A stretch of DNA of 56,130 bases from the NCBI GenBank assembly GCA_009927055.1, contig RFNS01000252.1, forward strand, positions 1 to 56,130, in the 5' to 3' direction. Shown here piece by piece: positions 7,618 through 48,485 of the stretch. The stretch is from Alphaproteobacteria bacterium (GTDB lineage: Bacteria > Pseudomonadota > Alphaproteobacteria > UBA9219 > RFNS01). The translations under genes were made by a program, and so were the position numbers. Each line of letters begins with the position of its first letter. Within the stretch, counting starts at the first letter, position 1. The notes beneath the pieces were generated by a model. It did not search any database. It saw only the letters and a program-made list of their open reading frames with translations, and was not told where the DNA came from.

Positions 7618-8663
7618 GCTGCCTGCCGCCAATGGTGGAAAATTTTTTGCATCAATTTGGGCCACCCCAGTTTTTCCAGCGCGGGGGCAGAAAGCCATTG
7701 ACCATTCAGTTGAGGGGGGGTGCTGATGCGGGCCTCCATCACCTCAACATACAACCGAAGGTGGGTAAAAATATGGCTAACCTGCCCCTCAACCCGCCGC
7801 CATTGTGCCTTGATGGGGGGGGTGTGCTGATACCCCTCCTCCTCCCACGGCCCCATGGGCAAGGCCCACATGTTGGCCAAAAGCCCTGTATGGGGGCGTT
7901 GTTCAATATAAATTTTGCCGTGCTGATCACGCAGCACATAGGCCCGCGCATAGCACGACCTGGGTTTTTTTTTGGCCACTTTGGCCGGAATTTTTTCCTG
8001 CAACCCTTTTTGGTGCGCCACGCACGCCGCGGCCCAAGGACATCGCCCACAGGCAGGATGGCGCGGCGTGCACACAGTCGCCCCCAAATCCATCAGAGCT
8101 TGGGCAAAATCGCCCGCGCGTTTTTGGGGCACCAGCGCTTGGGTCAGCGCCGCAATTTTTTTGATATTGTCTTTGGGCGGCTGTGTCAGGCCATGCAGGC
8201 GCGATATCACACGCTCAACATTGCCATCGACCGCAGCCACAGGCTGATGAAACGCAATGGCCGCCATGGCCCCCGCCGTATAGGCCCCAAGACCTGGCAG
8301 TTTTTTTAATCCCTCAACCGTTTGTGGCCACAGGGCGGCGTGTTCTGTCACAAGCGTTTGGGCGCAAGCATGCAGCAGTTTGGCGCGCCGATAATAGCCA
8401 AGCCCCGCCCATGTTTGCAGAACCGTCTCAACCTCGGCCCGCGCCAGCGCCCGCACGGTGGGGAACTGCTGCAGAAATTTTGAATAATAGTTTTTGACCG
8501 TGGCCACGGTGGTTTGTTGCAACATCATCTCGCTGACCAGCACATGATAAGGATCGGGCTTTTGTCCGCCTTTAATACGCCAGGGCAGATCGCGCCCGTG
8601 CTGATCATACCATATGAGCAGCCGAGTAGTCAGCGCAGAGATTTTAGGCTTAGATAGCGGCAT
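7614..8663 (-). CDS. mutY: A/G-specific adenine DNA glycosylase
   Basis: HhH-GPD motifs LPWR, PYHVLVSEMMLQQT, LPGLGAYTAGA and VDGNVERV, a 4Fe-4S Cys cluster (CTPRHPACGRCPWAAAC) and a NUDIX-like C-terminus. Start at MPLSKPK (8663); the track start at 8693 is possible. Confidence 0.9.
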   Translation of the reverse strand: MPLSKPKISALTTRLLIWYDQHGRDLPWRIKGGQKPDPYHVLVSEMMLQQTTVATVKNYYSKFLQQFPTVRALARAEVETVLQTWAGLGYYRRAKLLHACAQTLVTEHAALWPQTVEGLKKLPGLGAYTAGAMAAIAFHQPVAAVDGNVERVISRLHGLTQPPKDNIKKIAALTQALVPQKRAGDFAQALMDLGATVCTPRHPACGRCPWAAACVAHQKGLQEKIPAKVAKKKPRSCYARAYVLRDQHGKIYIEQRPHTGLLANMWALPMGPWEEEGYQHTPPIKAQWRRVEGQVSHIFTHLRLYVEVMEARISTPPQLNGQWLSAPALEKLGWPKLMQKIFHHWRQAA

Positions 8664-9126
8664 GAAGCCCCTGCACCACGCCACCCAGCGCATCGCCCGT
8701 CAAGTGGCGGGGAAAGAATATGCCGCGCTGGCCCAGGTGCTGGAATATTGGGCCGATATTGTGGGGCCAAAGTACGCCAGCCAGTGCGCGCCCATCAAAA
8801 TCAGCCTGATGCCCAGCGGGCCGAATAAAAAAGTGGGCACCCTCACCCTGCGGGCGCCGCGCGGGCTTATCCCCGAACTCAGCTATGCACAGGTGCATAT
8901 TTTGTCGCGCCTGAATGGTTTTATGGGGCACCTGGGCATCGATAAACTGCATTTTGAAGCGTCAACCCAAACCTCTAACATGAAGAAACAACCCCAACAC
9001 ACTGATAAAAATAATGAAATTGAACCGCCCGCCGAACATATGCGCGCTCTTGAAAAAATATCTGACACAGAGCTGCGCGAATCTTTATATAAACTGGCAC
9101 TGGCCATCGCCAGAAATAAGGCATAA
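8662..9126 (+). CDS. DUF721 / DciA-like protein
   Basis: 154 aa from MKPLHH. The conserved gene neighbourhood (divergent from mutY, upstream of dsbA) and the overall N-terminal pattern are recalled from alphaproteobacterial DUF721 proteins. The assignment is from memory and the start is uncertain. Confidence 0.5.
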   Translation: MKPLHHATQRIARQVAGKEYAALAQVLEYWADIVGPKYASQCAPIKISLMPSGPNKKVGTLTLRAPRGLIPELSYAQVHILSRLNGFMGHLGIDKLHFEASTQTSNMKKQPQHTDKNNEIEPPAEHMRALEKISDTELRESLYKLALAIARNKA

Positions 9127-9216
9127 AACGGTTGGCAAATCGGGCTTGTTTTCAAAGCTTTGCCACACTTAAGATGTAAGCTTCGAATCGTGGTCTGTTT
9201 CAACAGAAAGGTTAAC

Positions 9217-9825
9217 ATGCGCACGCTGCTTCTTGTTTTGCTGATGGTTTGTGGTTTTACCCCCACCCCCTCCTGGGCCCAGGAACAAAAGGCCGATCCG
9301 CGCATGGCCGATATTGTGATGGGCAAGGATGATGCGCCGGTGACGATGATTGAATATGCCTCGCTCACCTGTTCTCACTGCGCGGCGTTTCATACTGAAA
9401 CACTGCCCAAACTGATGACCGAGTATGTCGAGGCGGGTAAATTAAAAATCATTTTCCGTGAAATCGCGTTCGATGCCGTGGGGCTTCAGGCCGCCGCCCT
9501 TGCGCGCTGCCTGCCGACTGAACGCACGCAACCCTTTATCAGCACGCTTTTCAAGCAGCAAAGCAGCTGGCTGAAAAGCCAAGACCCGCTCCAGACCGTG
9601 GCCCAATATGCCCGCCTGGCCGGCATGAGCGAAGATCAGGCCAAGGCATGCAGGGAAGATGAACCGCTGCTGACCGCCATCAGTCAAATCCGCATGGATG
9701 CCAGCAAAGAATATGATGTGAACGCCACGCCCAGCTTCATCATCAACAATGGCGCCGCCAAGATTGAGGGCAACCGCCCTTATGAGGAATTCAAAAAAGC
9801 CATTGATGCGTTATTACCCCAGTAA
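9217..9825 (+). CDS. DsbA-family thiol:disulfide oxidoreductase (periplasmic)
   Basis: Signal peptide MRTLLLVLLMVCGFTPTPSWA, a thioredoxin CSHC active site, and the TPSFIING motif near the C-terminus. Confidence 0.85.
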   Translation: MRTLLLVLLMVCGFTPTPSWAQEQKADPRMADIVMGKDDAPVTMIEYASLTCSHCAAFHTETLPKLMTEYVEAGKLKIIFREIAFDAVGLQAAALARCLPTERTQPFISTLFKQQSSWLKSQDPLQTVAQYARLAGMSEDQAKACREDEPLLTAISQIRMDASKEYDVNATPSFIINNGAAKIEGNRPYEEFKKAIDALLPQ

Positions 9826-9836
9826 AACAGGAGTGG

Positions 9837-12800
9837 ATGTTGGATTTTACAAAACTTCAATTGCACGGGTTCAAATCGTTTGTTGAGCCCACCACACTCC
9901 TGATCGAGCCGGGCCTGACAGGCATTGTGGGCCCCAACGGCTGCGGCAAATCGAATTTAATCGAGGCGCTGCGCTGCGTGATGGGCGAAAATTCGGCCCG
10001 CCGCATGCGCGCGCCCGACATGGATAATGTCATTTTCAGCGGCACCGCCACGCGCCCGTCGCGCAACCTGGCCGAGATTTCCTTGTGGCTCGATAACTCG
10101 GGCCGCACGGCACCCGCCGAATTTAATGACCAACACGAACTGCAAGTAACCCGTGTGATCGAGCGCGGCGAGGGATCACTTTATCACATCAACGGCCGCC
10201 CCGTGCGCCAGCGCGATGTGCAGATGGTGTTTGCCGATCAGGCCACAGGCGCCCAGGCCAATAACATTGTGGGCCAAGGGCAAATTGATGCGCTGATACG
10301 CGCCAAACCGCAGGACAGGCGCAAAATTTTGGAAGAAGCCGCCGGCATTACGGGCCTTGAAGCACGCCGCCACGAAGCCGAATTGAAACTGAAAGCGGCC
10401 GAGCAAAATCTGCAACGCGCCGAAGATGTTTTGAAAACCTATGAAAGCCAGCAGCGCAGCCTGAAATCTCAACTGCGCGCCGCGCAGCGATATCGCGAAT
10501 TGAACGATGGCATTCAGGCCCATGACATGTTGCTGCTGCATGTGCGCCAGCAACTGGTGACACAGCAGATTGCCGAAACAAACCAGCAGATGGCCATCCT
10601 TGAACACGAGATTGAATCGCTGACGCAGCAAATCACCCTCACTGAAACTGCGCGCATTGAAAAAACCAACGAACTGCCCCCCATGCGCCAGGCCGAAGCC
10701 GCGGCCGCGGCGCTGTTGCAGCGCCTGACGCTTGAGCTGGAAAAAATTCAGGCTGAGCAAGCGCGCGTGACAAAAGAGCAGTTGAATTTACAGCAGCAAA
10801 TGGCCGCCGCCCATAACGATCACACCCACGCCGATCATCAACTGGATGATGCGCTGGCGACGCTGCAAAAACTCTATACCGAGCAAAGCCAGCGCCAGCA
10901 GCAGCTGGAGGCTTTGCGCAGTCTTCTGCCCGCGCGCGCGCATGATCATCACCTTGTGGCCGAGCAGGTTCATGCGGCCGAGCAAAATCTGCACACCCTG
11001 CTGGCCACCATCGCCGAAACAGAAAGCCAGCGCACGTCGTATCAAAACCAGCTTCAGCGCGCGCAGGCGCAAGTGCACACCATGCAGCAGCGCCAAGCCG
11101 ATCTGGAGAGCACGCGCGCGCACTGGGAACAGCAAAAAAGAGAATTGCCCGATTTAACCTTGGCCAAATCGATGGTCGATGCGTGCGAAGCCGATGTGCA
11201 AAAAAAGCAGGAGCAGCTGCAAGCCGCCGAACAGGCCGAGCACGATGCCGATGCCACCGCGAAAGAAGCGCAACAAAAGGTCGATGCCGCGCAGCATGAG
11301 CTGACCAAACTGCGCGCCGAGGAAACAGCCCTGCGTGACTTGCTGGAATCGCAGCGCGGGCTGGAGCAGCGCGTGCTTGATTTGCTGGAAGGCACTGGCG
11401 GCTTTGAAACGGCGCTGGCCGTGGCCTTTGGCGAAGCCCTGACGGCCGCGCTGAATGACGAGGCCCCCAGTTACTGGCAACAACGCACGCTGGCCGCCCC
11501 CTTGCCCCCTCTGCCCGTGGGCGCCGAACCTCTCAGCCAGCTGGTGCAGGCGCCAGCCGAACTTCAATCGCTCCTTTCCATGACAGGTTTGGTGAACAGC
11601 GATGATGAAGGTCGCGCGCTGGCCGCGCAACTTTTGCCCGGACAAATTCTTGTCACGCGTGATGGCTGGGCCTGGCGGTGGGATGGCTATACCATTACAC
11701 CCAAGGCCACCACCACTTATGCCACGCAACTTCGCCAGCGCGCGCGGCTGCAAGAACTGGCGCAGCTGACAAAACAATCGGCGCAGCTGCTTCAAAATCT
11801 TCAAACCCATGAAACCATGGCGCGTGAAAAATTTTTACTAACACGGCAGGCCGCCACCGACATGCGCACGCAGTTGCAGCTGGCCACCCGCGCGCTGGCT
11901 GATGCGCACCAGCTTCACGCGCGTCAAACGGCCCAGACCAGCGAGTTATCGGCCAAACTGCAATCGGTCATCGACCATCTTGCGCGCACCGAAACCGATT
12001 TGGCCATGCAGCAGCACGAACAGCAGCAGGTGGCCGAGCAGCTGCAAGCGTTGCCCGATACATCGGCGCAGCAGCAGCAAGCCACCCAAAGCAAGCTTGA
12101 TTTGGTTGAGCTGCGCCAGAAACTGGCTCACGCGCACCAAACATGGCGCGAGGCCGAACGCGAAGGCGAGCAGATCAACATTCGTTTAACACAGATTGCC
12201 GATGAAATTTTGGGTTGGGCACAACGGCGCGACAAGGCCATGCTTCAGATGGATGTGACGGGCACGCGCCTGATGGTGTTGGCCGATGAACAGCAAACGC
12301 TGGCGCAGCTTCCTGAAAAACTGGCCGAAGTGCAGCAGCAAACACTTCTTCAGCGCAGAGAGGCCGAAGAAAAACGCCAGCACGCAGCCGATGTTCTGGT
12401 CGCGGCCGAAAACCTTGCCGAAACACTGGGGCAAGATTTGAAAAAACTGGAAAAAACACTGGCCACGCAGCGCGAAGCGCGCGTGCGCCTGGAAGGTCAG
12501 CAAGAGATGGCGGCAGCCGAGCAGGCCGATATCGTGGCCGCCTGTCAGCAGCAATTTCAGGTTGAACCCCACGCCCTGCCACAGCACATGGCTGCAGACC
12601 TTTTGGTTGAACCGCTGCCCGATCGCGCATCGTTGCAGCAAAAATTGCAAAAAATGGTAGGCGAGCGTGAGGCGATGGGCCCCATTAATCTGCGGGCCGA
12701 GATTGAAATGGACGAGCTGCAGGAAAAACTGAGCAAGCTGGAGACAGAGCGCGATGATTTATCAAGCGCCATTGCCAAACTTCGCAACGGCATTGCCGAA

Positions 12801-23151: not shown

Positions 23152-23761
23152 GATAGGCGCTTCCGTAGCAGCACCGCCCACCGCCGTCAAAGTTGCGTGG
23201 CTTCTGGTGTTGTCGGTGGGGGTTTTAACGCTGGGGGCAAAAATTCAGGTGCCGCTGTGGCCCGTGCCCACAACCCTGCAAACACTTGCCTTGTGCCTTA
23301 TGGCGTGTTATCTCGGCCCCCGCATGGCGGTGGGGGGCGTGCTGGCTTATATGGCCGCTGGCTTTTTGGGTGCGCCTGTTTTTGCGGGCGCGGTGGCTGG
23401 CCCCGCCTATTTGTTTGGCCCCACAGCAGGCTATTTAATGGCGTTTATTCCCGCGGTGTATGTGGCCAGCTTGCTGTGTCACCGCACATCGACCCACGGC
23501 ATGGGCCTGTTCAGCCAGTGTGTAGCTTTTCTTGTGCTGCACGCGGTGGTTCTGGCGGGCGGAACACTCTGGCTGGCGTTTGCTCCGCTTGAGGCATCGC
23601 CCCTTGCAGCAGCACAGGCCACCACCAACCACGACACCCCCATGAGCCTCGCCACTGCTTTTGCCGCAGGGTGCGCGCCTTTTATTGTGGGGAGCATCAT
23701 GAAATCGGCCCTCGCCACCGCCCTCATCCAGGCGCAGCGCTGGGGAAAAGATTGGAGTTAG
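23120..23761 (+). CDS. bioY: Biotin transporter BioY
   Basis: Motifs PVPTTLQTLAL and GPTAGYLMAFIPA, with 5-6 TM helices. The start is either ATG 23120 or ATG 23150. Both overlap the 5' end of the divergent receptor gene. Confidence 0.8.
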   Translation: MTASKTERISMIGASVAAPPTAVKVAWLLVLSVGVLTLGAKIQVPLWPVPTTLQTLALCLMACYLGPRMAVGGVLAYMAAGFLGAPVFAGAVAGPAYLFGPTAGYLMAFIPAVYVASLLCHRTSTHGMGLFSQCVAFLVLHAVVLAGGTLWLAFAPLEASPLAAAQATTNHDTPMSLATAFAAGCAPFIVGSIMKSALATALIQAQRWGKDWS

Positions 23762-24678
23762 CCGCTTGACCCAGGTGCAGGCGATGGGGTTGGGGTGGTT
23801 GCAACATCCGTTGGAACACTATCTTTAACGGCCTGCAACTTGGTTTTCCGGGCAGCTGCCGGCCCAAAAATTCCATCTGCCTCCCCTGCACTTGTTGCCA
23901 ATTTGCTAAGGTTTGCAACTAATGTTTTTCCACTGGCTGTAAGTGCACCATTCTTTGGGTCGTAAATTTTCTTTGAGTCTATGCCTAAAGTCTTAGCGAC
24001 AACTTCTACACTTTGTGCTATTGTCTGGGGGTTTCTTGGTTTTAATTTTCTTTGTGCAAACAAGTCCGGGTTTTTCAGCCCATGCAATGCCGCAAATGCC
24101 CTGCCTTGTTTGGCAGTTAGGTTTGCACCTGCTGCTGGCATCCTCTCTCCTTTAGGAGTCTCTGCCACTCGCGTACCTGTTTGAAGGCTAGGATCACTAC
24201 CATCATAAATATATGAAACTTCTCTCGGTGTATATCTTTCACCCCTGTAATGATCTCCAAAATGATGCCTTTGATGACCTCCTCTAATTAAGGGTTGCCC
24301 TCCAGAAGTTAAAAAGCTGTTTTTAATTCCCGGCATGTGAAAAAGCGTAGAACCATTTGTAGGGTCAATGCCCATAGCTTTTTCAGCAAGCACTCGTCTA
24401 GCTATCTGCTCATAGTCATTTCCGGCGGGTAAGTTTCTAACATTCCCTCTACCCTTAAGATTTACCCCTGAAAAATGTGCGTTACCAGATTTGTATTTTT
24501 TATTCAGAAAGCTTGTGAGTGTGGGGTGCCCTTTTGAAAGTCTTGGATTACTATAAGCATTGAGCACTGCATGACCAACTCTTACCATTTCATATGTATT
24601 GCCATATCCGCCTGCCTCATCTCGAATAATGGCAGCAAAATTTCTAATATCTGTTCTTGAAAGGTGTATCTTCCTCAT
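23758..24678 (-). CDS. Leaderless cell-wall hydrolase-like protein (SleB/Hydrolase_2-like N-domain, PG_binding_1-like C-terminal motif), AT-richer islet
   Basis: The N-terminal block AAIIRDEAGGYGNTYEMVRVGHAVLN, then TLFHMPG and GGHQRHHFGDHY, resemble SleB-type hydrolase motifs. The C-terminal GEADGIFGPAAARKTKLQAV resembles the DGxFGPxTxxAV peptidoglycan-binding motif. There is no signal peptide. Start at ATG 24678 (AGAGG upstream); the track TTG at 24711 is possible. Confidence 0.5.
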   Translation of the reverse strand: MRKIHLSRTDIRNFAAIIRDEAGGYGNTYEMVRVGHAVLNAYSNPRLSKGHPTLTSFLNKKYKSGNAHFSGVNLKGRGNVRNLPAGNDYEQIARRVLAEKAMGIDPTNGSTLFHMPGIKNSFLTSGGQPLIRGGHQRHHFGDHYRGERYTPREVSYIYDGSDPSLQTGTRVAETPKGERMPAAGANLTAKQGRAFAALHGLKNPDLFAQRKLKPRNPQTIAQSVEVVAKTLGIDSKKIYDPKNGALTASGKTLVANLSKLATSAGEADGIFGPAAARKTKLQAVKDSVPTDVATTPTPSPAPGSSG

Positions 24679-24784
24679 TTGTGCCTCTACGTCACTATAT
24701 CTAAAATCCAATCTTTATTCCTTAATTCCCATTTACAATTGGCGTGATTTAACCAATATTTCTGGTTAAAGGAGAAAAAAATTT

Positions 24785-29643: not shown

Positions 29644-29764
29644 CCAATGCCACAAACGCCTTCAGCGCATCATCGATGCGTGTTTGCCACCCAGGGCCTT
29701 TGGCCTTGAAAAAGGCCAACACCTCGGGCGAGACACGCAGGTTGAAGCGCATCTTGCTTTTCAT
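29633..29764 (-). CDS. brnA: BrnA-family antitoxin (short form, 43 aa)
   Basis: MKSKMRFNLRVSPEVLAFFKAKGPGWQTRIDDALKAFVALVKD matches the BrnA C-terminal signature (IRLDxDVLxWFKxxGxGYQTRIN). It lies immediately downstream of brnT. Confidence 0.7.
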   Translation of the reverse strand: MKSKMRFNLRVSPEVLAFFKAKGPGWQTRIDDALKAFVALVKD

Positions 29765-30032
29765 GTTCTTTTTCCTCTCGTTGATTGGCTTTACGTAAAC
29801 TGATGATGCGCAACGCATCCTCTCTCAAGGTAAAGACGCAAATATACAATCGCTGCCCAACAATATGACCACTCGCCACATAGCGATCCTCGCCATAGTC
29901 TTCACGAACGTCGAGTTCGACAATGGCATCCTCCCACTCAAAAAACGCGATATCCTCAAAGTCAACGCCGTGCTTGGCGATATTTTGCGGGCGCTTGGCA
30001 CTGTCCCACCCATGTTCCACAGATTCTTGCAC
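29670..30032 (-). CDS. brnT: BrnT-family (DUF497) toxin whose reading frame runs about 95 nt into brnA
   Basis: GTG start. WDSAKRPQNIAKHGVDFEDI...GEDRYVASGHIVGQRLYICVFTLREDALRIISLRKANQRE is the BrnT pattern. The conserved part ends near 29770. The last 30 or so codons are an out-of-frame reading of brnA. Confidence 0.7.
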   Translation of the reverse strand: MQESVEHGWDSAKRPQNIAKHGVDFEDIAFFEWEDAIVELDVREDYGEDRYVASGHIVGQRLYICVFTLREDALRIISLRKANQREEKEHEKQDALQPACLARGVGLFQGQRPWVANTHR

Positions 30033-35480: not shown

Positions 35481-35987
35481 TTGACGCAATATAGCGATAA
35501 AGGCTTTAACGCCCCCCCCTTTGCCAGCCCTGCTGGCGGCCAAACCGCGCCAGAGAAAGCGGCATGGCAGACTGTTGGCATTAGCCCCACCACCAACTGG
35601 GCCGAACAAGACGAACGATTAAAACAATTGTGGGATCAGGGTCTGACCCCCGCCAAAATTGCCGAAGCCTTGGGTCGCACCGAAGCCGCCGTGATGACAC
35701 GCGCGGCACGCATTGGCCTGCCCCGCCGTTTTGCCCCCGGTCGCAAGGCCCAAAGCCCCAACGTGGCCCGCCCCACGGTAAAGCGCGAAGCGCGCATGCG
35801 CAGCACCGCATCGTTCACCAACTTGGCCGAACCCGTGGCCCAGATTGTGGAGCGCGTGTGTTTAATGTGCCTAACCAAATTCCCCAGCGTCGGTCGTCAT
35901 AACCGCATTTGCAACGGCTGCAAGGACACTAACGAATATCGCAATGCGCTGGAAGTGACCGAATATAACGTTCAAAGCCGATCGTAA
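35481..35987 (+). CDS. GcrA-like N-terminal HTH protein with a C-terminal CxxC...CxxC zinc ribbon
   Basis: WAEQDERLKQLWDQGLTPAKIAEALGRTEAAVMTRAARIGLPRR resembles the GcrA N-terminal DNA-binding domain (WTDERVELLKKLWxEGLSASQIA...GKVHRLGL). The C-terminal CLMCLTKFPSVGRHNRICNGC is not GcrA-like. Only a TTG start is available, so the 5' end is uncertain. Confidence 0.55.
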   Translation: MTQYSDKGFNAPPFASPAGGQTAPEKAAWQTVGISPTTNWAEQDERLKQLWDQGLTPAKIAEALGRTEAAVMTRAARIGLPRRFAPGRKAQSPNVARPTVKREARMRSTASFTNLAEPVAQIVERVCLMCLTKFPSVGRHNRICNGCKDTNEYRNALEVTEYNVQSRS

Positions 35988-36402: not shown

Positions 36403-36486
36403 TTACTTCTTCTTCGCTGTTTTTTTCGCTACTTTTTTCACCGTCTTTTTGGCGGGTTTTTTAGCAGCTTTCTTTTTTACAGCCAT
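36403..36486 (-). CDS. 27-aa lysine-rich microprotein (histone H1-tail-like)
   Basis: Not in the ORF track because it is too short. Manual translation gives MAVKKKAAKKPAKKTVKKVAKKTAKKK-stop. A strong SD, GGAGGAG, ends 6 nt before the ATG (ggaggagaaaaacATG), and a terminator lies 20 nt after the stop. Confidence 0.65.
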   Translation of the reverse strand: MAVKKKAAKKPAKKTVKKVAKKTAKKK

Positions 36487-36841: not shown

Positions 36842-39394
36842 CTAGCGTGATGTATCGCCAAACAGGCGGCGGCGCAGGCCCAGGCCGCGTTCGCGCGCGG
36901 CGTCTTCTAAATGAGGGGGCAGCTGAAGATCGGCCGCCTCAATCACAATTTCTTTGCGCTTGATCACCGACCAATCGCCCGCCATGCGGCCAATCGCGGC
37001 GTGATGTTGCCCATAATAAGGTGTCACGGCGCCTGCGCTGATGCCGTCGCCGCCATTGCCTGCCAGGCCATCGCCCGCCTGAACAGGTTCAGGCATGCCG
37101 GTGATAGGGTTGATGACCATGGGCCGCACCTGATCGATGGGCTGACCAGAAACAGTTTGTTTGGCATGCTGGCTGACATGAGCATGACCGCCCGCCCCGC
37201 CACCCGCCATGCCAGGAATGCCAAAGTGACCGCCTGCAATAATATCTTGCACCTTGCCTTCGTCACCCTCACGCAAGGGGTGCGAGGTAGCGATTTTCAC
37301 CTTCGACCGGCCAAGCATGATGCGTTCCTGTTCGGCGTGCGCGGCGGCTTGGCGCTGCTGCGTGGCCAGTTCCATTAACCCACCCACGGCAATGGCCCCC
37401 GCTTCGGTGGCCGATTTATTTTGCGCCAGCGCCGTTTCAAATGCGTGGTTGAGGGCCGCAAATTCAGGTGGTGCTTCGGTCAGTGCGGGTGAAGCAGTCT
37501 CGGCGGTCCAGTCGGGGTCTTTCAGTTGCAGGGTTAAATCATCAACAATTTTTTCGCGGGCCGAGGTTGCCTGCGTAAAACCAGGCACAGGCAAAAAGCG
37601 ATGCACGCGCATGGCGGCCGTTTTTTCGGGCACGCAGTGCAGAAGCCGCGCGCGGATCAGCTGCTCTTGCACAAAGATATAGGCTTGCCCCTCGCGCTGT
37701 TTGCGAAGGTGATCATAAGAAATGCGCTGGCGCACGTTCAACGAAATACTGCGATCATCCATATAGTTTTCATTGCTGAAAATGCTGGCCACATTGCTTT
37801 GCGGGGCGGTATAGCCCTTTGTTTCCATCACCCACTCGTGACCCGCGTGTTTATCCAGAAAGTCTTTGGTGTCCAGCGGGTCTTCGATCTTCCCAAAAAT
37901 TTTAATGTTACAGTTACCCACAATCGATCGCGCTTCCTGCTTCACGCGGCGTTCCATCGCCGCCAAATCCTGCGCGGCGAACACAAGGCTGAAACCGAGT
38001 GAGCGCGCCTGCGCCGCCATCACGTTCATGCCGGGGGCTGTATAATAACCCACCTCGTCGAACACGGTCATATAGCTGTTGGCCGAACGTGTTTGCTTGG
38101 TGCCAATCGCTTCTTCCCAGCTGCCTTCCACCGAGGCGCCAAGGGTTGACCCCATCATGCCCTTCAGCCCCGCCACCACAATTTTACCCAGGTTGGCCGC
38201 TTCATCCAACGCCTTTTCAAGCGCGGGGATCAGCACAATAAGAATGCGGCGGTTCAACACCACGTCGATCACATCGATATCGGCCAGCTGCGCTTTGAAG
38301 ATATAGTGATATTCATCGGCCAGCGATTGCAGCGAGCGTGTAAACTGCATCGACAAATAACCATGCTGCTGGCGCGCCACCTGCAAATCGTACATGGGCT
38401 GATCGGGGCTGGGTGGTTTTTCGTTCCCGTCATCATCGAACGCGGCATCAATATATCCAGGCAGGGTTTGCAGATACCCCTGAAGACCGCGAATAATCCG
38501 CTCTGGCAGCTTGGCATTGCGGCTGAGTTTAATAATGGGGCCCAGTTCCAGGTTATCGCGCACCGTGCCAATATCCATCAGCAGGCCTTCGTGATCGCGC
38601 ATATAGGTGAGAGCAGGCATCAGGGCGAACATCAGGGCGGTCGCACGCTCTTTCCACATGGCGTTATCGCCGCCGGCATCGGGCATCAAGCTGATAATCA
38701 TGTTGGCAAGAAACGATGACGAGCCGTTGGCAAACGGATTCATGGTGTTGGAAAGCGCCGCATCATCGCTGTTGCCGGTCATATAGTTCAAAATCAGCAG
38801 GTCATCATCGCGGCCAAAGCGGCGGGCGAGCGCATAAAGCGATGCCCACAAATCGGTATCGGCCTTACCATCGACATACACAAACCCCGAACCCCACGTG
38901 AGCGCGTTCGACACAAGTGACTTTAACCCCTCGGTTTTACCGGCGCCGGTTGTCCCCAGATATAAGAAGTGGGTTCGCGCATCGTTATTGCTCACCCAAA
39001 TCTCCTGCCCTGTTTCCTCACAGGTGCCCATGTATAAAATGCCCTCGGCTTTGCCGGCGCCGCCTTTGCCGGGGGGAGGGTTGTTGGGGTCTTTCAGCTT
39101 ATCGCCGGCGGTGGCCGGAATTTTCCACGGCAGCTTGAACGTGCGCTTATCGGCCCAGCCATAGTACATAAGGGCGCATAGAAAAATAAAATCGGTCGAG
39201 TTGAGCACCCACGTAAAAGATTCGGCGAACGGCGGGACGATGGGAAGAAAGGCCACACCCAACCCCACAAACATCAACAGCGCGCCCACAACCTCGAACT
39301 TGCCGAAGTAATCGGCCAGCTTGACATAAACGGGGCGCGGATCCTTAAGGAGCCACGCCTGGCGCACTTGCATTTTATGGACGGGCGTTGCCAT
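36842..39394 (-). CDS. icmO: Type IVB secretion coupling protein, DotL/IcmO-like ATPase
   Basis: 850 aa with two N-terminal TM segments, a Walker A (LGTTGAGKTE) and a Walker B-like VFDEVGYY. Several blocks match my memory of Legionella DotL: WVSNNDARTHFLYLGTTGAGKTEGL, GSGFVYVDGKADTDL, DDLLILNYMTG, VLNRRILIVLIPALEK and AQARSLGFSLVFAAQDL. Confidence 0.75.
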   Translation of the reverse strand: MATPVHKMQVRQAWLLKDPRPVYVKLADYFGKFEVVGALLMFVGLGVAFLPIVPPFAESFTWVLNSTDFIFLCALMYYGWADKRTFKLPWKIPATAGDKLKDPNNPPPGKGGAGKAEGILYMGTCEETGQEIWVSNNDARTHFLYLGTTGAGKTEGLKSLVSNALTWGSGFVYVDGKADTDLWASLYALARRFGRDDDLLILNYMTGNSDDAALSNTMNPFANGSSSFLANMIISLMPDAGGDNAMWKERATALMFALMPALTYMRDHEGLLMDIGTVRDNLELGPIIKLSRNAKLPERIIRGLQGYLQTLPGYIDAAFDDDGNEKPPSPDQPMYDLQVARQQHGYLSMQFTRSLQSLADEYHYIFKAQLADIDVIDVVLNRRILIVLIPALEKALDEAANLGKIVVAGLKGMMGSTLGASVEGSWEEAIGTKQTRSANSYMTVFDEVGYYTAPGMNVMAAQARSLGFSLVFAAQDLAAMERRVKQEARSIVGNCNIKIFGKIEDPLDTKDFLDKHAGHEWVMETKGYTAPQSNVASIFSNENYMDDRSISLNVRQRISYDHLRKQREGQAYIFVQEQLIRARLLHCVPEKTAAMRVHRFLPVPGFTQATSAREKIVDDLTLQLKDPDWTAETASPALTEAPPEFAALNHAFETALAQNKSATEAGAIAVGGLMELATQQRQAAAHAEQERIMLGRSKVKIATSHPLREGDEGKVQDIIAGGHFGIPGMAGGGAGGHAHVSQHAKQTVSGQPIDQVRPMVINPITGMPEPVQAGDGLAGNGGDGISAGAVTPYYGQHHAAIGRMAGDWSVIKRKEIVIEAADLQLPPHLEDAARERGLGLRRRLFGDTSR

Positions 39395-39513
39395 ATCTGC
39401 GATGTCCTCTTTAGCTATCTGCCCGCGGGCAGGCCGTTAGTTAAGCAAGCGTAAACTATAATCCTTCAAACGCCAATTTTTCATTAATTTCGGTCGTGAC
39501 TCACTTTGAGTGA

Positions 39514-42384
39514 TTATCCAGCTTTTTTCCGTGGCTTCGCCTTCACCTCAACATGAGATACTTTCAAAAGCCCTTTCAGATATTGGCCGGTATAGCTGCG
39601 TTTTTCGCGGGCGACATCTTCGGGGGTGCCGGTGGCCAAAATCTCGCCGCCGCCATCGCCGCCTTCGGGGCCCAAATCAATCACCCAATCGGCCGTTTTG
39701 ATCACTTCCAGGTTGTGTTCAATCACCAGCACGGTGTTGCCCGTCTCGACCAGCGAATGCAGCACATCCAGCAGCTGGCGCACGTCATCGAAATGCAAAC
39801 CGGTGGTGGGTTCATCGAGAATATAAAGTGTTTTGCCTGTTGCACGGCGCGAGAGTTCCTTGGCCAGCTTCACGCGCTGCGCCTCGCCGCCCGAAAGCGT
39901 GGTGGCCGGCTGCCCAATTTTGATATAGCCCAACCCCACCTGATGCAGCGTTTCAAGCTTGCCGCGTATCAGCGGAATGTTGGCGAAAAAGCCCACGCCT
40001 TCTTCCACCGTCATATCCAAAACATCGGCGATGCTTTTGGTGTTATATTTCACCTCCAGCGTTTCGCGATTATAGCGCTGGCCGTTGCATTCATCGCACG
40101 TCACATAAACATCGGGCAGAAAGTGCATGGCGATTTTGATCACGCCATCGCCCTGACACGCCTCGCACCGGCCACCTTTCACGTTAAAGGAGAAACGCCC
40201 AGGGCCATAGCCGCGCGTCTTCGCCTCAGGCAGGCCGGCAAACCAATCACGAATGGGCGTAAAGGCGCCCGTGTAGGTGGCGGGGTTGCTGCGCGGCGTG
40301 CGGCCAATGGGTGATTGATCAATATCAATAATTTTATCGAGGTGGTGAACGCCGCGAATGGCCTGGTGTTCGGCTCCACTCTCGCGGCTGCCGTTCAGCG
40401 TTTTGTTCAGCGCCTTATAAAGCGTTTCGATAATCAAGGTGCTTTTGCCGCTACCCGACACACCCGTGACACAGCAGAATGTGCCCATAGGAATTTTGGT
40501 GGAAACATTTTTAAGGTTGTTGGCTTTGGCGCCCACAACCTCCAGCCATTTGCCGTTGCCCATGCGGCGTTCGGCCGGCACGGCAATAGTGCGACGACCG
40601 CTGAGATATTGTCCGGTTAAACTGTGGCTGGCTTTGGCAATATCGGCGGAGGTTCCTGTCGCAATCACCTTGCCGCCGTGCACGCCAGCACCCGGCCCAA
40701 TATCGATGACATGATCAGCGGCGCGAATGGCATCTTCATCGTGTTCCACCACAATCACCGTGTTGCCAATATCGCGCAGGTGCTTCAGCGTTTCCAGCAG
40801 GCGATCATTATCGCGCTGATGCAGGCCGATGGATGGTTCATCCAGCACATACAGCACGCCCGTCAGCCCCGCCCCGATTTGTGATGCCAAACGAATGCGC
40901 TGGCTTTCACCGCCCGAAAGCGTGCCCGCCTGGCGCGAGAGCGTGAGATAATCCAGCCCCACGTTCACAAGAAACCCCAGACGCATGTTGATTTCTTTCA
41001 GAATGCGCGTGGCAATTTCATTGTGCTTGGCCGAGAGTTTTTTGGGCAGGCCTGTAAACCATTCCTGCGCCGCGCGAATAGAAAATTGTGAGACGTTATG
41101 AATATTCAACCCCGCCACTTTCACGGCCAGGGCTTCAGGCTTCAGGCGCTGGGCATCGCACGCGGGGCAGCGTTTGGCCTCTTGAAATTTTCCCAGCTCC
41201 TCGCGCATCCAATCGCTGCCTGTTTCGGTAAAACGGCGAGCCAGGTTGGGGATGACCCCTTCAAACGGGCGGTTGGTGTGGTATCGCCGCGCTTCATCTG
41301 AAAAATCGATTTTAACATTGGCGCCCTTGCTGCCGTGCAAAATCACCTGACGCAGCTGCTCGGGCAAATCTTTCCACGGGGTGTTCATGCTGCTTTTGTA
41401 AAGGCGGCAAATACTTTGCAGCGTTTGTGTGTAAAAGTATGCGCTGGGGTCTTTCCACGGCGCAATGGCACCATCAGCCAGCGAGAGAGTGATATCGGGG
41501 ATCACCAGATCTTCCGTAAATTCCAACTGCTCGCCAAGGCCACTGCAGGTGGGGCAGGCGCCATGCGGATTGTTGAACGAAAAAAGCCGCGGCTCGATCT
41601 CAGGAATGGTGAAGCCCGAAACAGGGCACGCAAACCGCGATGAAAACAGGGTGATTTTTCCTGTCTCGACATCTTCCACTTCGCACAAACCATCGCCCAG
41701 GCGCAGCGCCGTCTCCACACTATCGGCCAGGCGGTTGCCCAAATCAGGGCCCATGACCAGCCTGTCAATCACCACCGAAATATCATGTTTCAATTTTTTA
41801 TTCAGGGTGGGAATATCATCCAGCTCCACCACCTTGCCATCAATTTTGGCGCGCTGATAACCCTGGCGGCGCATCTCCATCAACTCTTGCCGATATTCGC
41901 CTTTGCGTCCGCGCGCAATGGGGGCCAGCAGCAGAATTTTGGCGCCATCCTTCAGCGTCTTTAACCTGTCCACCATCTGTGTCACGGTCTGGCTTTCAAT
42001 GGGTTTGCCGGTGGCGGGTGAATAGGGCACGCCAATGCGCGCAAAAAGCAGGCGTAAATAATCATAAATTTCGGTCACCGTGCCCACGGTCGATCGTGGA
42101 TTTTTGCTGGTGGTTTTTTGCTCAATCGAAATGGCGGGGCTTAAACCATCGATGCTGTCCACATCGGGCTTTTGCTGCATTTCCAAAAATTGGCGCGCAT
42201 AGGCCGAAAGACTTTCAACATAACGGCGCTGCCCTTCGGCATAGATCGTATCAAACGCCAGCGATGATTTGCCCGAACCCGAAAGCCCCGTAATGACCAC
42301 CAACTTATTTTTGGGGATCGTCACATCAATATTTTTCAGGTTATGGGTGCGCGCGCCGCGCACAATGATGTTGGTCAGGCTCAT
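39514..42384 (-). CDS. uvrA: Excinuclease ABC subunit A
   Basis: 956 aa. N-terminal [37 protein letters not shown], two ABC modules ([24 protein letters not shown]) and zinc-finger Cys clusters. Confidence 0.96.
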
Positions 42385-46167: not shown

Positions 46168-46254
46168 TGGTGCGGGCAGCCGGAATCGAACCGGCATGCT
46201 ATTGCTAGCGCAGGATTTTAAGTCCTGTGCGTCTACCTGTTCCGCCATGCCCGC
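46168..46254 (-). tRNA. tRNA-Leu (anticodon UAA)
   Basis: The reverse complement reads GCGGGCATGGCGGAACAGGTAGACGCACAGGACTTAAAATCCTGCGCTAGCAATAGCATGCCGGTTCGATTCCGGCTGCCCGCACCA. It has a long variable arm, a CTTAAAA anticodon loop and an encoded CCA. Confidence 0.9.
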
Positions 46255-46271
46255 CTGGTGCCAATGACAGA

Positions 46272-46289
46272 TCCCTGCTTTCGCAGGGA
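46272..46289. repeat. GC-rich hairpin unit (CTGC-TTTC-GCAG) between tRNA-Leu and its partial copy
   Basis: tccctgctttcgcaggga, the same design as the units at 6562-6644 and 26091-26108. Confidence 0.7.
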
Positions 46290-46333
46290 CAAAGCTTTGC
46301 TACCCTCGCTGCGCTCGGCAAGCAAGCGCTTTG

Positions 46334-46373
46334 TTTTAAGTCCTCTCGCGTCACCCTGCTCCGCCATGCCCGC
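46334..46373 (-). pseudogene. Degenerate copy of the 5' half of tRNA-Leu (5' end through the anticodon loop)
   Basis: ttttaagtcctctcgcgtcaccctgctccgccatgcccgc compared with ttttaagtcctgtgcgtctacctgttccgccatgcccgc in the intact gene (46216-46254). About 34 of 40 positions are identical, with one indel. Confidence 0.75.
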
Positions 46374-46494
46374 GCTGTTCCTTGATAAACGAAAATTTTG
46401 GCGTGGCAAATAAAGGAAACGGTAGTGGGTCAGTTTGAAAATCAATAATTGCAAAATGACTTTGCCAAAGCGGTCAAGCATGGCATGATGGGGC

Positions 46495-46731
46495 ATGGCC
46501 AAGAACCCCAAAAGACCGCGTGACCCGAACCAGCTTGCCGCCTTGATAGCGTGGATAGCTACGGGTGAGGTTAAGGACAATTCGCCGGACGAAGGCAAGA
46601 ACCCTGCGGCTGTGGCTCGTGGCAAAAAAGGGGGACTTATAGGTGGCAAGGCTAGAGCCACCAAATTGACGGCAGCACAGAGAAAAAAGATTGCCAAAAA
46701 AGCCATAAAAACTAGATGGGCTAAAGATTAA
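46495..46731 (+). CDS. Passenger gene 1: small basic protein (78 aa) with a KGG/KARA C-terminal motif
   Basis: MAKNPKRPRDPNQLAALIAWIATGE...RGKKGGLIGGKARATKLTAAQRKKIAKKAIKTRW. I have seen this pattern in many small mobile-element-associated ORFs. The function is unknown. Confidence 0.55.
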   Translation: MAKNPKRPRDPNQLAALIAWIATGEVKDNSPDEGKNPAAVARGKKGGLIGGKARATKLTAAQRKKIAKKAIKTRWAKD

Positions 46732-47192
46732 ACTTCTTCTTCCTGATTTTCTTTGGCGTCATCACTACCCTTTTTCCCATTTTTTCGCTTATAGCCAGGA
46801 TACCATTCGATAAGACCGTATTGCCCCCTTTTTACCAATACAACCCCCCCATCTGTTTTTGCTAAACGATGCAATACTGAGCCAACAGTGTTAACAAAAC
46901 TTACCGATGAATGAGTAATGCCACCTTCTTCTAGGAACTGGGCGATTTCGGCAGGGGTTAGTGGCTTTCGTTTCATCCCCATCAATTTACGAATGGCATC
47001 TGGCACGGAAAGGCCGAAGAAAGTGTCATTTTTGATAACATCGTTAATCGTGGCCTTTTCAACTGGTTTTACCGATGTTTGCCCAATAAAAGAGCGAACA
47101 CCATCAATCATTTTGTCGATAGTATCGCGCTTGGCTAAAAGGTCGGCTAAAACAGCGTTGTAATCAATGCCCTGATTTTGGTCGTTTTCCAT
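46728..47192 (-). CDS. Passenger gene 2: hypothetical protein with a HARE-HTH/winged-helix-like C-terminal half
   Basis: 154 aa. LSVPDAIRKLMGMKRKPLTPAEIAQFLEEGGITHSS...VGSVLHRLAKTDGGVVLVKRGQYGLIEW resembles HARE-HTH. It is convergent with passenger 1 and their stops overlap by 4 nt. Confidence 0.5.
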   Translation of the reverse strand: MENDQNQGIDYNAVLADLLAKRDTIDKMIDGVRSFIGQTSVKPVEKATINDVIKNDTFFGLSVPDAIRKLMGMKRKPLTPAEIAQFLEEGGITHSSVSFVNTVGSVLHRLAKTDGGVVLVKRGQYGLIEWYPGYKRKNGKKGSDDAKENQEEEV

Positions 47193-47349
47193 TGACGGAA
47201 TCCCTATAAATCGTTATAAAAAAAACAGAAGGGGCGGGCTAACGCTTCCGCTCCCCCTGTATGGTTCATGGATAGAACCTAGCCTTTTGGGCTGTTACTC
47301 TATTATCATGTACCACCTGCCCTTCTTCGACGTTGGTTAGGATTAAAAT

Positions 47350-47390
47350 ACACCCCCTCAAGCCGCCAGCTTTTGGGGGTGTTTTATTAT
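47350..47390 (+). terminator. Hairpin plus T-run inside the IS, upstream of the transposase gene
   Basis: acaccccc (47350-47357) pairs with gggggtgt (47375-47382), followed by tttatt. It may insulate the transposase from read-through or terminate a small transcript. Confidence 0.35.
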
Positions 47391-47495
47391 TTACCCCTTC
47401 TTAATTTGATTCGCAAGAAAAATTTACACTGAAATTTACAAAATGTTGTAATTGACTATTGACGCATACAACACGTCTCAAGTATAAAAGTCAGT

Positions 47496-48338
47496 ATGAA
47501 CCGACTGACCACAGAACAACGCGCTCAAATCCTGCACTTGTTGTGCGAGGGGAATAGCATACGCGCAGTAACGCGCCTTACTGGGGTAAGCAAAAATACC
47601 GTCACAAAGTTGTTAGTAGACGCTGGTAAGGCGTGTGCTGAATACCAAGACCGCGTGTTTCGTGAATTGCCGTGCAAGAAAATCCAAGTGGATGAAATCT
47701 GGTCATTCGTTTATTCAAAGGCCAAGAATGTGCCTGAAAACAAGCAGGGCGAGGCTGGAGATATTTGGACGTGGACGGCCATTTGCGCTGATACCAAACT
47801 CGTTCCTAGCTGGCTTATTGGTGGGCGTGATGCTGAATATGCCGTGTCATTCATGCGTGACCTTGCCGCCCGTTTATCAAACCGCGTTCAACTGACCAGT
47901 GACGGCCACCGCGCCTATTTGTCTGCCGTGGAAGGTGCGTTTGGTGCGGACGTGGATTATGCCCAGCTTGTGAAAATGTATGGTGACGTGGTGGAAGGCC
48001 GGAAACGCTATAGCCCTGCTGATTGCGTAGGCATTCAGAAAACCAAAATTAGCGGCAATCCTGACCCATGCTGCATCTCAACAAGCTTTGCCGAACGTCA
48101 AAACCTAACGATGCGGATGCACATGCGCCGCTTTACCCGCCTGACCAACGCTTTCAGCAAGAAGATTGAAAACCACGGCTATTCGGTCGCGCTGCATTTC
48201 ATGTATTACAATTTTTGCCGCATTCATCAGTCCCTGCGTGTCACCCCAGCCATGGCCGCTGGCGTAACCAACAAACTTTGGGAAATGGTGGATGTGGTGA
48301 AAATGCTAGAGGACTATGAAAGCAATAATTCAAACTGA
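47496..48338 (+). CDS. IS1-family transposase (fused HTH + DDE, no frameshift)
   Basis: 280 aa. N-terminal HTH (TEQRAQILHLLCEGNSIRAVTRLTGVSKNTV), a DDE region (VDEIWSFV...WTWTAICADTKL...QLTSDGHRAY) and the C-terminal RRFTRLTNAFSKKIENH...YNFCRIH pattern typical of IS1 InsB-like proteins. Confidence 0.8.
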   Translation: MNRLTTEQRAQILHLLCEGNSIRAVTRLTGVSKNTVTKLLVDAGKACAEYQDRVFRELPCKKIQVDEIWSFVYSKAKNVPENKQGEAGDIWTWTAICADTKLVPSWLIGGRDAEYAVSFMRDLAARLSNRVQLTSDGHRAYLSAVEGAFGADVDYAQLVKMYGDVVEGRKRYSPADCVGIQKTKISGNPDPCCISTSFAERQNLTMRMHMRRFTRLTNAFSKKIENHGYSVALHFMYYNFCRIHQSLRVTPAMAAGVTNKLWEMVDVVKMLEDYESNNSN

Positions 48339-48409
48339 CCCACTACCAAGGAAACAAACCAGTTGCCAAGCGCAAAAAGTCACGTTAACAATGCTCCACT
48401 TCAGACTGT

Positions 48410-48485
48410 TCCCCGGTAGCTCAGTCGGTAGAGCATGTGGCTGTTAACCACAGTGTCGGCGGTTCGAGCCCGTCCCGGGGAGCCA
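48410..48485 (+). tRNA. tRNA-Asn (anticodon GUU)
   Basis: TCCCCGGTAGCTCAGTCGGTAGAGCATGTGGCTGTTAACCACAGTGTCGGCGGTTCGAGCCCGTCCCGGGGAGCCA has a CTGTTAA anticodon loop, a GGTTCGAGC T-arm and an encoded CCA. Confidence 0.9.

Follow-up and report, generated by a model that had tools for sequence, protein, structure and literature searches.

Why does a type IVB secretion system (T4BSS) coupling protein gene lie among housekeeping genes of an alphaproteobacterial chromosome, apart from the rest of the machine it should serve? The question is raised by dotL/icmO, an open reading frame (ORF) of 850 codons at 36842..39394 on the minus strand of contig RFNS01000252.1 (assembly GCA_009927055.1, Alphaproteobacteria bacterium). 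All 56,130 nucleotides of the contig were analysed, and this whole stretch is referred to here as the window. An earlier note, made from the sequence letters alone, had recognised the product as a type IVB coupling ATPase and had offered two explanations for a lone copy in a core context, namely a dispersed T4BSS or a repurposed ATPase. It is now clear that the ORF encodes a genuine, intact DotL/IcmO-type coupling protein of 850 aa. As for its setting, dispersal is clearly favoured over repurposing, although this is something we infer. The window dotL is probably one relocated piece of a T4BSS that is dispersed over the chromosome.

A genuine DotL/IcmO-type coupling protein

The family assignment is supported by sequence, profile and fold. 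A phmmer search of the Protein Data Bank (PDB) with the window DotL returns IcmO/DotL as its sole matches (6sz9_A, E 3.5e-129, aa 13-603 against 14-590). A profile of the window protein and 26 homologues reaches DotL at E 5.4e-177, and no other type IV coupling protein (T4CP) appears in that search at E ≤ 10. Foldseek was run with an AlphaFold model built on 118 sequences (predicted local distance difference test score, pLDDT, 71.8; an earlier 27-sequence model with a pLDDT of 48.9 was discarded). It places DotL first (E 8.8e-29), TrwB next (about 4e-12), and then HerA and VirB4. The Pfam domains TrwB_AAD_bind and TraG-D_C are matched in the protein. The top NCBIfam model is TrbC_conju (NF041447, the IncI DotL homologue), with 377.5 bits and E 1.3e-112 over aa 114-603. 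TraD and VirD4-like models reach 38-79 bits, those for TraD (45-79) falling far under their cut-offs.

Three other assignments were considered and rejected. A T4CP of type IVA (VirD4/TraG, TraD/TrwB) is ruled out because DotL is far stronger by all three approaches; the Pfam model T4SS-DNA_transf is sub-threshold, with 17.9 bits against a cut-off of 20.1. FtsK/SpoIIIE is ruled out because its Pfam match is both sub-threshold (16.2 bits against 24) and confined to the P-loop. The IncI1 TrbC equivalog is ruled out as well, since 377.5 bits falls far short of the NF041447 equivalog cut-off of 800. The type IVB call is therefore fully supported by the profile and structure searches, with neither VirD4/TraG nor FtsK/SpoIIIE as the better match.

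The catalytic core is intact. Every motif block that had been quoted for the ORF is present and aligns residue for residue with Legionella DotL: WVSNNDARTH at aa 133, the Walker A motif GTTGAGKT at aa 147-154 (nt 38933-38956), GSGFVYVDGKAD at aa 168, DDLLILNYMTG at aa 197, VLNRRILIVLIPALEK at aa 379 and AQARSLGFSLVFAAQDL at aa 461. Both Walker motifs are intact, the Walker B residues D446/E447 occupying columns that are invariant across the alphaproteobacterial DotL family. Alignment with DotL, the Walker motifs and conserved columns together delimit the nucleotide-binding and all-alpha domains as aa 100-603 (37586..39097, minus strand). The reading frame starts with ATG, and a membrane anchor lies near the N-terminus at aa 33-82 (39149..39298, minus strand), as judged by hydropathy, AlphaFold helices and alignment with the DotL N-terminus. 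Two transmembrane segments had been claimed here. One is clear by hydropathy, aa 30-58 being strongly hydrophobic (Kyte-Doolittle 2.58). The second is plausible, and is seen as one of two AlphaFold helices (33-49 and 61-82, pLDDT >90), although helix 61-82 is only moderately hydrophobic.

What of the C-terminal extension? It comprises aa 604-850 (247 aa; 36845..37585, minus strand), as defined by the AlphaFold model, the DotL alignment and family-conserved positions. The model shows proximal helices (608-694), then a Gly/Ala-rich linker that is disordered (693-820), and at the very end one more helix (827-846). The description of this tail as rich in Gly, Ala and Pro was correct, as these make up 13, 15 and 6% of the last 231 aa compared with 8, 10 and 4% of the ATPase part. 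However, the further suggestion that it is unlike the adaptor-docking tail of DotL has to be divided. The proximal ~80 residues do align with DotL 590-670 by profile comparison, whereas the distal part has motifs conserved within its own family instead. Thus, the window DotL retains LPVP, W629, PLxEGDE (as PLREGDE, aa 706) and the LP...GLxG helix at its end, and the family-conserved positions R596, P604, W629, D807, L825, A837 and L844 are all kept. In Legionella the C-terminal extension of DotL binds DotN, IcmSW and LvgA (PMC7251119).

A large chromosomal family in Micavibrio-like bacteria

Dot/Icm-type coupling proteins had been described as known chiefly from Legionellales and IncI-like plasmids. 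A DotL in an alphaproteobacterium is nothing exotic, however; the window protein is one of a very large family that Micavibrio-like alphaproteobacteria carry on their chromosomes. Its database matches number more than 3000 proteins, the best 120 at 55-68% identity, and their source labels read 'Alphaproteobacteria bacterium' or IcmO. A scan of GTDB with clade-specific peptide patterns, using one genome per species, found 370 species loci with a dotL of this family, of which the best match to the window is 70% identical and partial. The best 80 loci come from metagenome-assembled genomes (MAGs) titled Alphaproteobacteria, Rhodospirillaceae or 'Bdellovibrionales' bacterium, plus Micavibrio. The window host is itself a Micavibrio-related alphaproteobacterium, and the CcrM-like and GcrA-like genes of the window fit an alphaproteobacterial host. 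Among the 80 is also a cultured organism with a complete genome, M. aeruginosavorus HCB189 (L071, NZ_CP195303.1), in which the order is TetR, dotM, a 192-aa gene, dotL, a 257-aa gene, argS and gyrB (dotM-dotL at 8007-12598).

In the closest relatives (proteins and loci are given here by their P and L labels), dotL ends a conserved block, dotN-dotO-dotM-g157-dotL. Full arrays are found with P0002/L009, P0099/L007 and L098. Their order is (gcrA-like) dotI, dotI, dotH, dotG, dotF-like, traQ-like, small genes, dotN, dotO, dotM, g157, dotL, other genes, and then dotD, dotC, dotB. Blocks of dotO-dotM-g157-dotL are found with P0001/L093, P0003/L010 and P0022/L004. The nearest relative, P0001, is 67% identical to the window protein over well-aligned columns and has only dotO-dotM-g163-dotL, flanked by a porin gene on one side and by a sigma-factor gene and pheT on the other. 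The array components were identified by Pfam tags, by comparison of DotM with the PDB (E 2.8e-26), by the IcmJ/DotN model (120 bits against a cut-off of 100) and by the IcmB names given by JGI and NCBI. Homologues of IcmS, IcmW and LvgA were not recognised in these arrays.

What if the window protein has nonetheless been repurposed as an ATPase that acts alone and needs no T4BSS channel, say as the membrane translocase of another pathway? Its lone, core-chromosome site beside uvrA would fit, as would the 2011 genome paper on M. aeruginosavorus ARL-13, which reported no sign of either type III or type IV secretion (PMC3189940). However, relatives that are 61-68% identical in the ATPase region lie inside T4BSS arrays, and the segments that bind DotN and adaptors in DotL (for the role of the extension see PMC7251119) are still conserved. 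Furthermore, a genome with a lone dotL retains dotO (see below), and pT4SSi, a type I protein-secreting type IV system of the type IVB class, has been detected in seven marine Micavibrionales (Needham et al., 2022; PMC9418006). Repurposing is therefore very improbable.

Recurrent detachment of dotL

Detachment of dotL from its block is not peculiar to the window. In about 52 of the 80 loci, dotL is directly preceded by dotM and/or g157; in 22, neither gene occurs in the flank, and six are cut by a contig edge. In a neighbour-joining tree, 16 lone (or edge-cut) dotL loci form one clade, and most of them share the order suf genes, nifU, pepN, pagL, lpxI, dotL, a 237-aa gene and secF. The genes upstream of dotL in this clade were considered as T4BSS-like genes and rejected, all of them (suf, nifU, pepN, pagL, lpxI) being housekeeping, with secF downstream. 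The 237-aa protein, always encoded after dotL and before secF in this clade (L017 12481-13194, orthologues in 12 loci), has a signal-peptide-like N-terminus and no Pfam match.

One genome of the lone clade illustrates how far such splitting can go. On its 321-kb contig JAMFSS010000009.1, dotL lies at ~86-88 kb and a lone dotO at ~150.5-153.5 kb, ~62 kb away, between a polyhydroxybutyrate (PHB) regulator gene and lysS. The reciprocal arrangement also exists. The L097 and L100 arrays have dotO-dotM-g154/g126 followed by unrelated genes, without dotL. (A 180-aa gene after g154 in L097 was compared with the gene after dotL in L007 and is not homologous.) The window dotL groups with P0001 and P0002 in the tree, outside the large lone clade, and its detachment is therefore an independent event.

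Perhaps the window copy is an extra paralog, used for a subset of substrates, while a canonical dotL resides in an array elsewhere. There are two GTDB MAGs with two divergent dotL loci each, CAIPYM01 (L035, L039) and JAYRGC01 (L028, L046). In each pair one copy is short (672 and 666 aa), apparently without most of the tail, and the pairs may be paralogs or mixed bins. The window copy, by comparison, is full length with the family tail, and the L097 and L100 arrays are truly without dotL. A paralog of this kind is improbable.

An element upstream of dotL

A clue to how detached genes might stay co-regulated lies in front of dotL. All 14 of the syntenic lone-clade loci examined have ATTAAC(C/T)AAAAA(A/C)TAAC (TTAAC-N6-TAAC), with small variations, ~90-115 bp before the gene. 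A position weight matrix (PWM) was built solely from these lone-clade sites and applied to 2.5 Mb of the remaining loci. The top three matches again precede dotL, this time where the gene is part of a clustered array, namely in L012 with 24.5 bits and in L010/L026 with 22.8 bits (93 bp upstream). More matches precede dotL in L027, L022 and L098, and another, at L092 9017, is upstream of the gene that precedes a lone dotO. TTAAC-N6-TAAC, which is thus conserved in front of clustered and unclustered dotL alike, could serve as the operator of a T4BSS regulon. With half-sites phased at 11 bp, it is reminiscent of the PmrA boxes at dot/icm genes in Legionella and Coxiella. PmrA-responsive promoter elements exist (PMC12754634).

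In the window, dotL is separated from uvrA (39514-42384, minus strand), which lies upstream on the same strand, by a spacer of 119 bp (39395..39513). A promoter-like site is present at 39484-39455. It is overlapped by a degenerate copy of TTAAC-N6-TAAC at 39491-39468 (minus strand), 97 bp before the dotL ATG, which is suggestive through its position and strand only. The dotL gene would thus be a self-contained transcription unit, and if so its relocation would be tolerable. The spacer also includes a perfect 14-bp palindrome, CTGCCCGCGGGCAG, at 39420-39436, 26-39 bp before the dotL ATG; it could be the stem of a uvrA terminator or an operator.

The neighbourhood of dotL in the window

The base composition of dotL is core-like, as had been judged by eye. 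GC content is 0.568 overall and 0.657 at third codon positions, and codon usage correlates with that of a pool of 13 neighbouring chromosomal genes at r = 0.94, compared with 0.66 for an insertion sequence (IS) transposase and 0.11 for an AT-rich ORF. The claim that dotL is a lone copy, unaccompanied by further dot/icm genes over 56 kb, is right as far as structural components go. However, a homologue of the array's usual first gene, overlooked in the earlier note, is only 854 bp away. This gene (35481..35987, plus strand) encodes a GcrA-like protein with a helix-turn-helix, a C-terminal four-cysteine motif and a weak match to Pfam GcrA (35.7 bits). It shares 45-51% identity with L095 g182 and L098 g187, and L100 g156, in the equivalent position, shares 61% with L098 g187. 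Such homologues lie directly upstream of dotI-dotI-dotH-dotG in all three relatives with a visible left array edge (L095, L098 and L100), and the protein is a putative T4BSS regulator. Its gene is convergent with dotL. Two genes that usually open and close an array of ~17 kb are thus neighbours in the window.

The GcrA-like gene differs somewhat between assemblies. An indel near 35719 splits the ORF in L002, one of three same-strain metagenome assemblies, and none of the three agrees with the window at 35797. This indicates either a polymorphic regulator or an assembly error.

Could dotL be the relic of a lost T4BSS? In this scenario the array interior, from dotI to g157, has been deleted, leaving the gcrA-like gene and a dotL that has not yet decayed or is drifting. 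An internal deletion could leave the same picture as is seen in the window, and this is one of several observations that weigh against a relocated but still serving dotL. The window was searched by tblastn and four-round jackhmmer with every L007 and L009 component, and by tblastn with genes from L095 (dotI, dotH, dotG and neighbours without a name), and dotL was the only structural dot/icm gene found in the 56 kb. At near-invariant columns (at least 95% conserved) the window DotL matches the family at 247 of 254. Its seven deviations, against a family median of two, make it the second most deviant of 119 sequences, and its mean identity to the family is the lowest (0.61 versus 0.66). The degenerate upstream element scores 10.8 bits with the PWM, which is third best in the window, under the mean maximum of shuffled sequences and not significant over the window as a whole. 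In addition, the organism's own genome is not among the GTDB species genomes scanned, and its dotO was not found among database matches. Two DotO protein searches gave hundreds of near-equidistant matches, the best candidates (P0203, P0125 and P0121) coming from other samples.

Nevertheless, a relic is distinctly unlikely. The reading frame of 850 codons is unbroken, and every catalytic and tail motif is in place. The nearest relatives, both in T4BSS contexts, have five (P0001) and ten (P0002) deviations at the near-invariant columns. Because these bracket the seven in the window, the raised count points to a lineage effect rather than decay, and even an intact array accompanies as much deviation (P0002). 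(The three metagenome contigs that carry dotL are identical in DNA across the gene.) The layout does not fit well either, since a simple deletion would give genes in tandem, whereas the gcrA-like gene and dotL are convergent and an independent small gene lies between them. Finally, whole clades stably keep a lone dotL, and one such genome has dotO elsewhere. A relocated dotL belonging to a dispersed T4BSS remains the probable reading.

The small gene in question is a 27-aa Lys/Ala-rich ORF, MAVKKKAAKKPAKKTVKKVAKKTAKKK, at 36403-36486 (minus strand), 356 bp downstream of dotL. The positions of this microprotein gene and of uvrA, named as neighbours of dotL in the earlier note, are borne out. 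It looks like a real small gene because it has a strong ribosome-binding site (GGAGGAG), an upstream promoter-like sequence (TTGACT-18-GATGAT) and a downstream hairpin with a T-run. It was rejected as a T4BSS-linked gene, there being no similar ORF in any related T4BSS locus. The other sizeable ORFs of the window are housekeeping genes: hemB, rnhB, ccrM-like, mutY, dciA, smc, fadAB, argG, tyrS, anmK, iscS, a peptidyl-prolyl isomerase (PPIase) gene, fur, uvrA, the gene for 3-deoxy-D-arabino-heptulosonate 7-phosphate (DAHP) synthase, dnaB, rpoN and rlmN.

Three further spots in the window deserve a brief description. Between bioY and argG, a 317-aa ORF at 23758-24711 (minus strand), with a GC content of 0.44 (0.31 at third codon positions), a codon-usage r of 0.11 and no Pfam match, makes up an AT-rich islet of foreign appearance. 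The interval 46171-48482, bounded by tRNA genes at 46171-46254 and 48410-48482, contains a transposase gene of IS type (47496-48338) and two ORFs of ~155 aa that lack annotation. A 47-kb ENA contig of the same strain stops at ~46420 of the window, consistent with an assembly-breaking repeat. Lastly, a BrnT toxin gene (29670-30032, minus strand) lies between anmK and a hydrolase gene, and the adjoining BrnA antitoxin is called in the matching ENA contig.

A possible course of events and its significance

The following scheme would account for these observations. An ancestral array (gcrA-like, dotI, dotI, dotH, dotG, further genes, dotN, dotO, dotM, g157, dotL, further genes, dotD, dotC, dotB) would have been broken up repeatedly. 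In the window lineage a rearrangement would have parted dotL from dotO-dotM-g157 and brought it to a new site downstream of uvrA, beside the usual first gene of the array. There, a promoter of its own in the 119-bp spacer probably drives dotL. The N-terminus of the protein would anchor it in the inner membrane, where an ATPase ring would form. The ~250-aa C-terminal extension, with DotM, DotN and possibly adaptors, would capture substrates, which would then be passed to a DotO/DotB-powered channel encoded elsewhere. In this scheme we infer the presence of the remaining T4BSS elsewhere in the genome, the secretion of effectors by DotL and the mode of regulation.

A bolder proposal goes further. 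Perhaps the Dot/Icm machine of Micavibrio-like, probably predatory alphaproteobacteria is split into single-gene units, scattered over the core chromosome, that TTAAC-N6-TAAC as a shared operator and a dedicated GcrA-like regulator join into a regulon, and the effectors of this machine go into bacterial prey. On this view, the window contains one such unit, dotL, beside the gene for its regulator. The idea is speculative, and we consider it rather unlikely.

Taken alone, the window gene is an unremarkable DotL family member, from a lineage that has been little studied. The wider interest lies in the barely studied Micavibrio-like T4BSS and in the extent of its possible fragmentation. The reported lack of type IV secretion (PMC3189940) contrasts with the dotM-x-dotL arrangement of HCB189 and with the hundreds of related species that have complete arrays. 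If this T4BSS serves bacterial predation, Dot/Icm biology reaches past the parasites of eukaryotic cells. There is also a practical side. T4BSS detection tools that require clustering will undercount, because dotL has become detached repeatedly, lineage by lineage. The conserved upstream element may travel with a detached dotL, and it provides a handle on the possible co-regulation of dispersed secretion genes.

Comparison with known systems

The closest known counterpart of the window protein is DotL/IcmO of Legionella pneumophila (PDB 6SZ9, 7OVB). The two are collinear from the N-terminal anchor through the ATPase and all-alpha domains and have the same Walker motifs. Both also have a C-terminal extension of ~200-250 aa, the proximal part of which can be aligned. 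In Legionella, DotM contacts the transmembrane helices and the membrane-proximal ATPase domain of DotL (PMC7251119), and counterparts of the partners DotM and IcmJ/DotN are encoded in relatives of the window DotL. There are differences as well. The distal tail of the window protein is a Gly/Ala-rich disordered linker with motifs of its own (PLxEGDE and the terminal helix). The relatives' arrays carry the small family-specific g157 between dotM and dotL, and in the window dotL is detached from dotM altogether. Moreover, the host is an alphaproteobacterium, one that probably preys on bacteria and does not live as a parasite inside eukaryotic cells.

The conjugative DotL homologue TrbC of IncI1 (R64) provides the closest NCBIfam model. 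However, the window dotL is chromosomal and its codon usage is ameliorated, with no relaxase or plasmid genes nearby. Together with the score below the cut-off, this indicates that it is not an IncI TrbC equivalog. TrwB (R388), TraD and VirD4 have the ATPase fold in common with the window protein, although by fold TrwB is seventeen orders of magnitude weaker than DotL.

As for organisation, the rvh genes of Rickettsiales and the multi-region dot/icm genes of Legionella are examples of domesticated secretion genes split among housekeeping genes. What sets the present family apart is that the splitting goes down to single genes, with dotL alone or dotO alone, and that it varies between close lineages.

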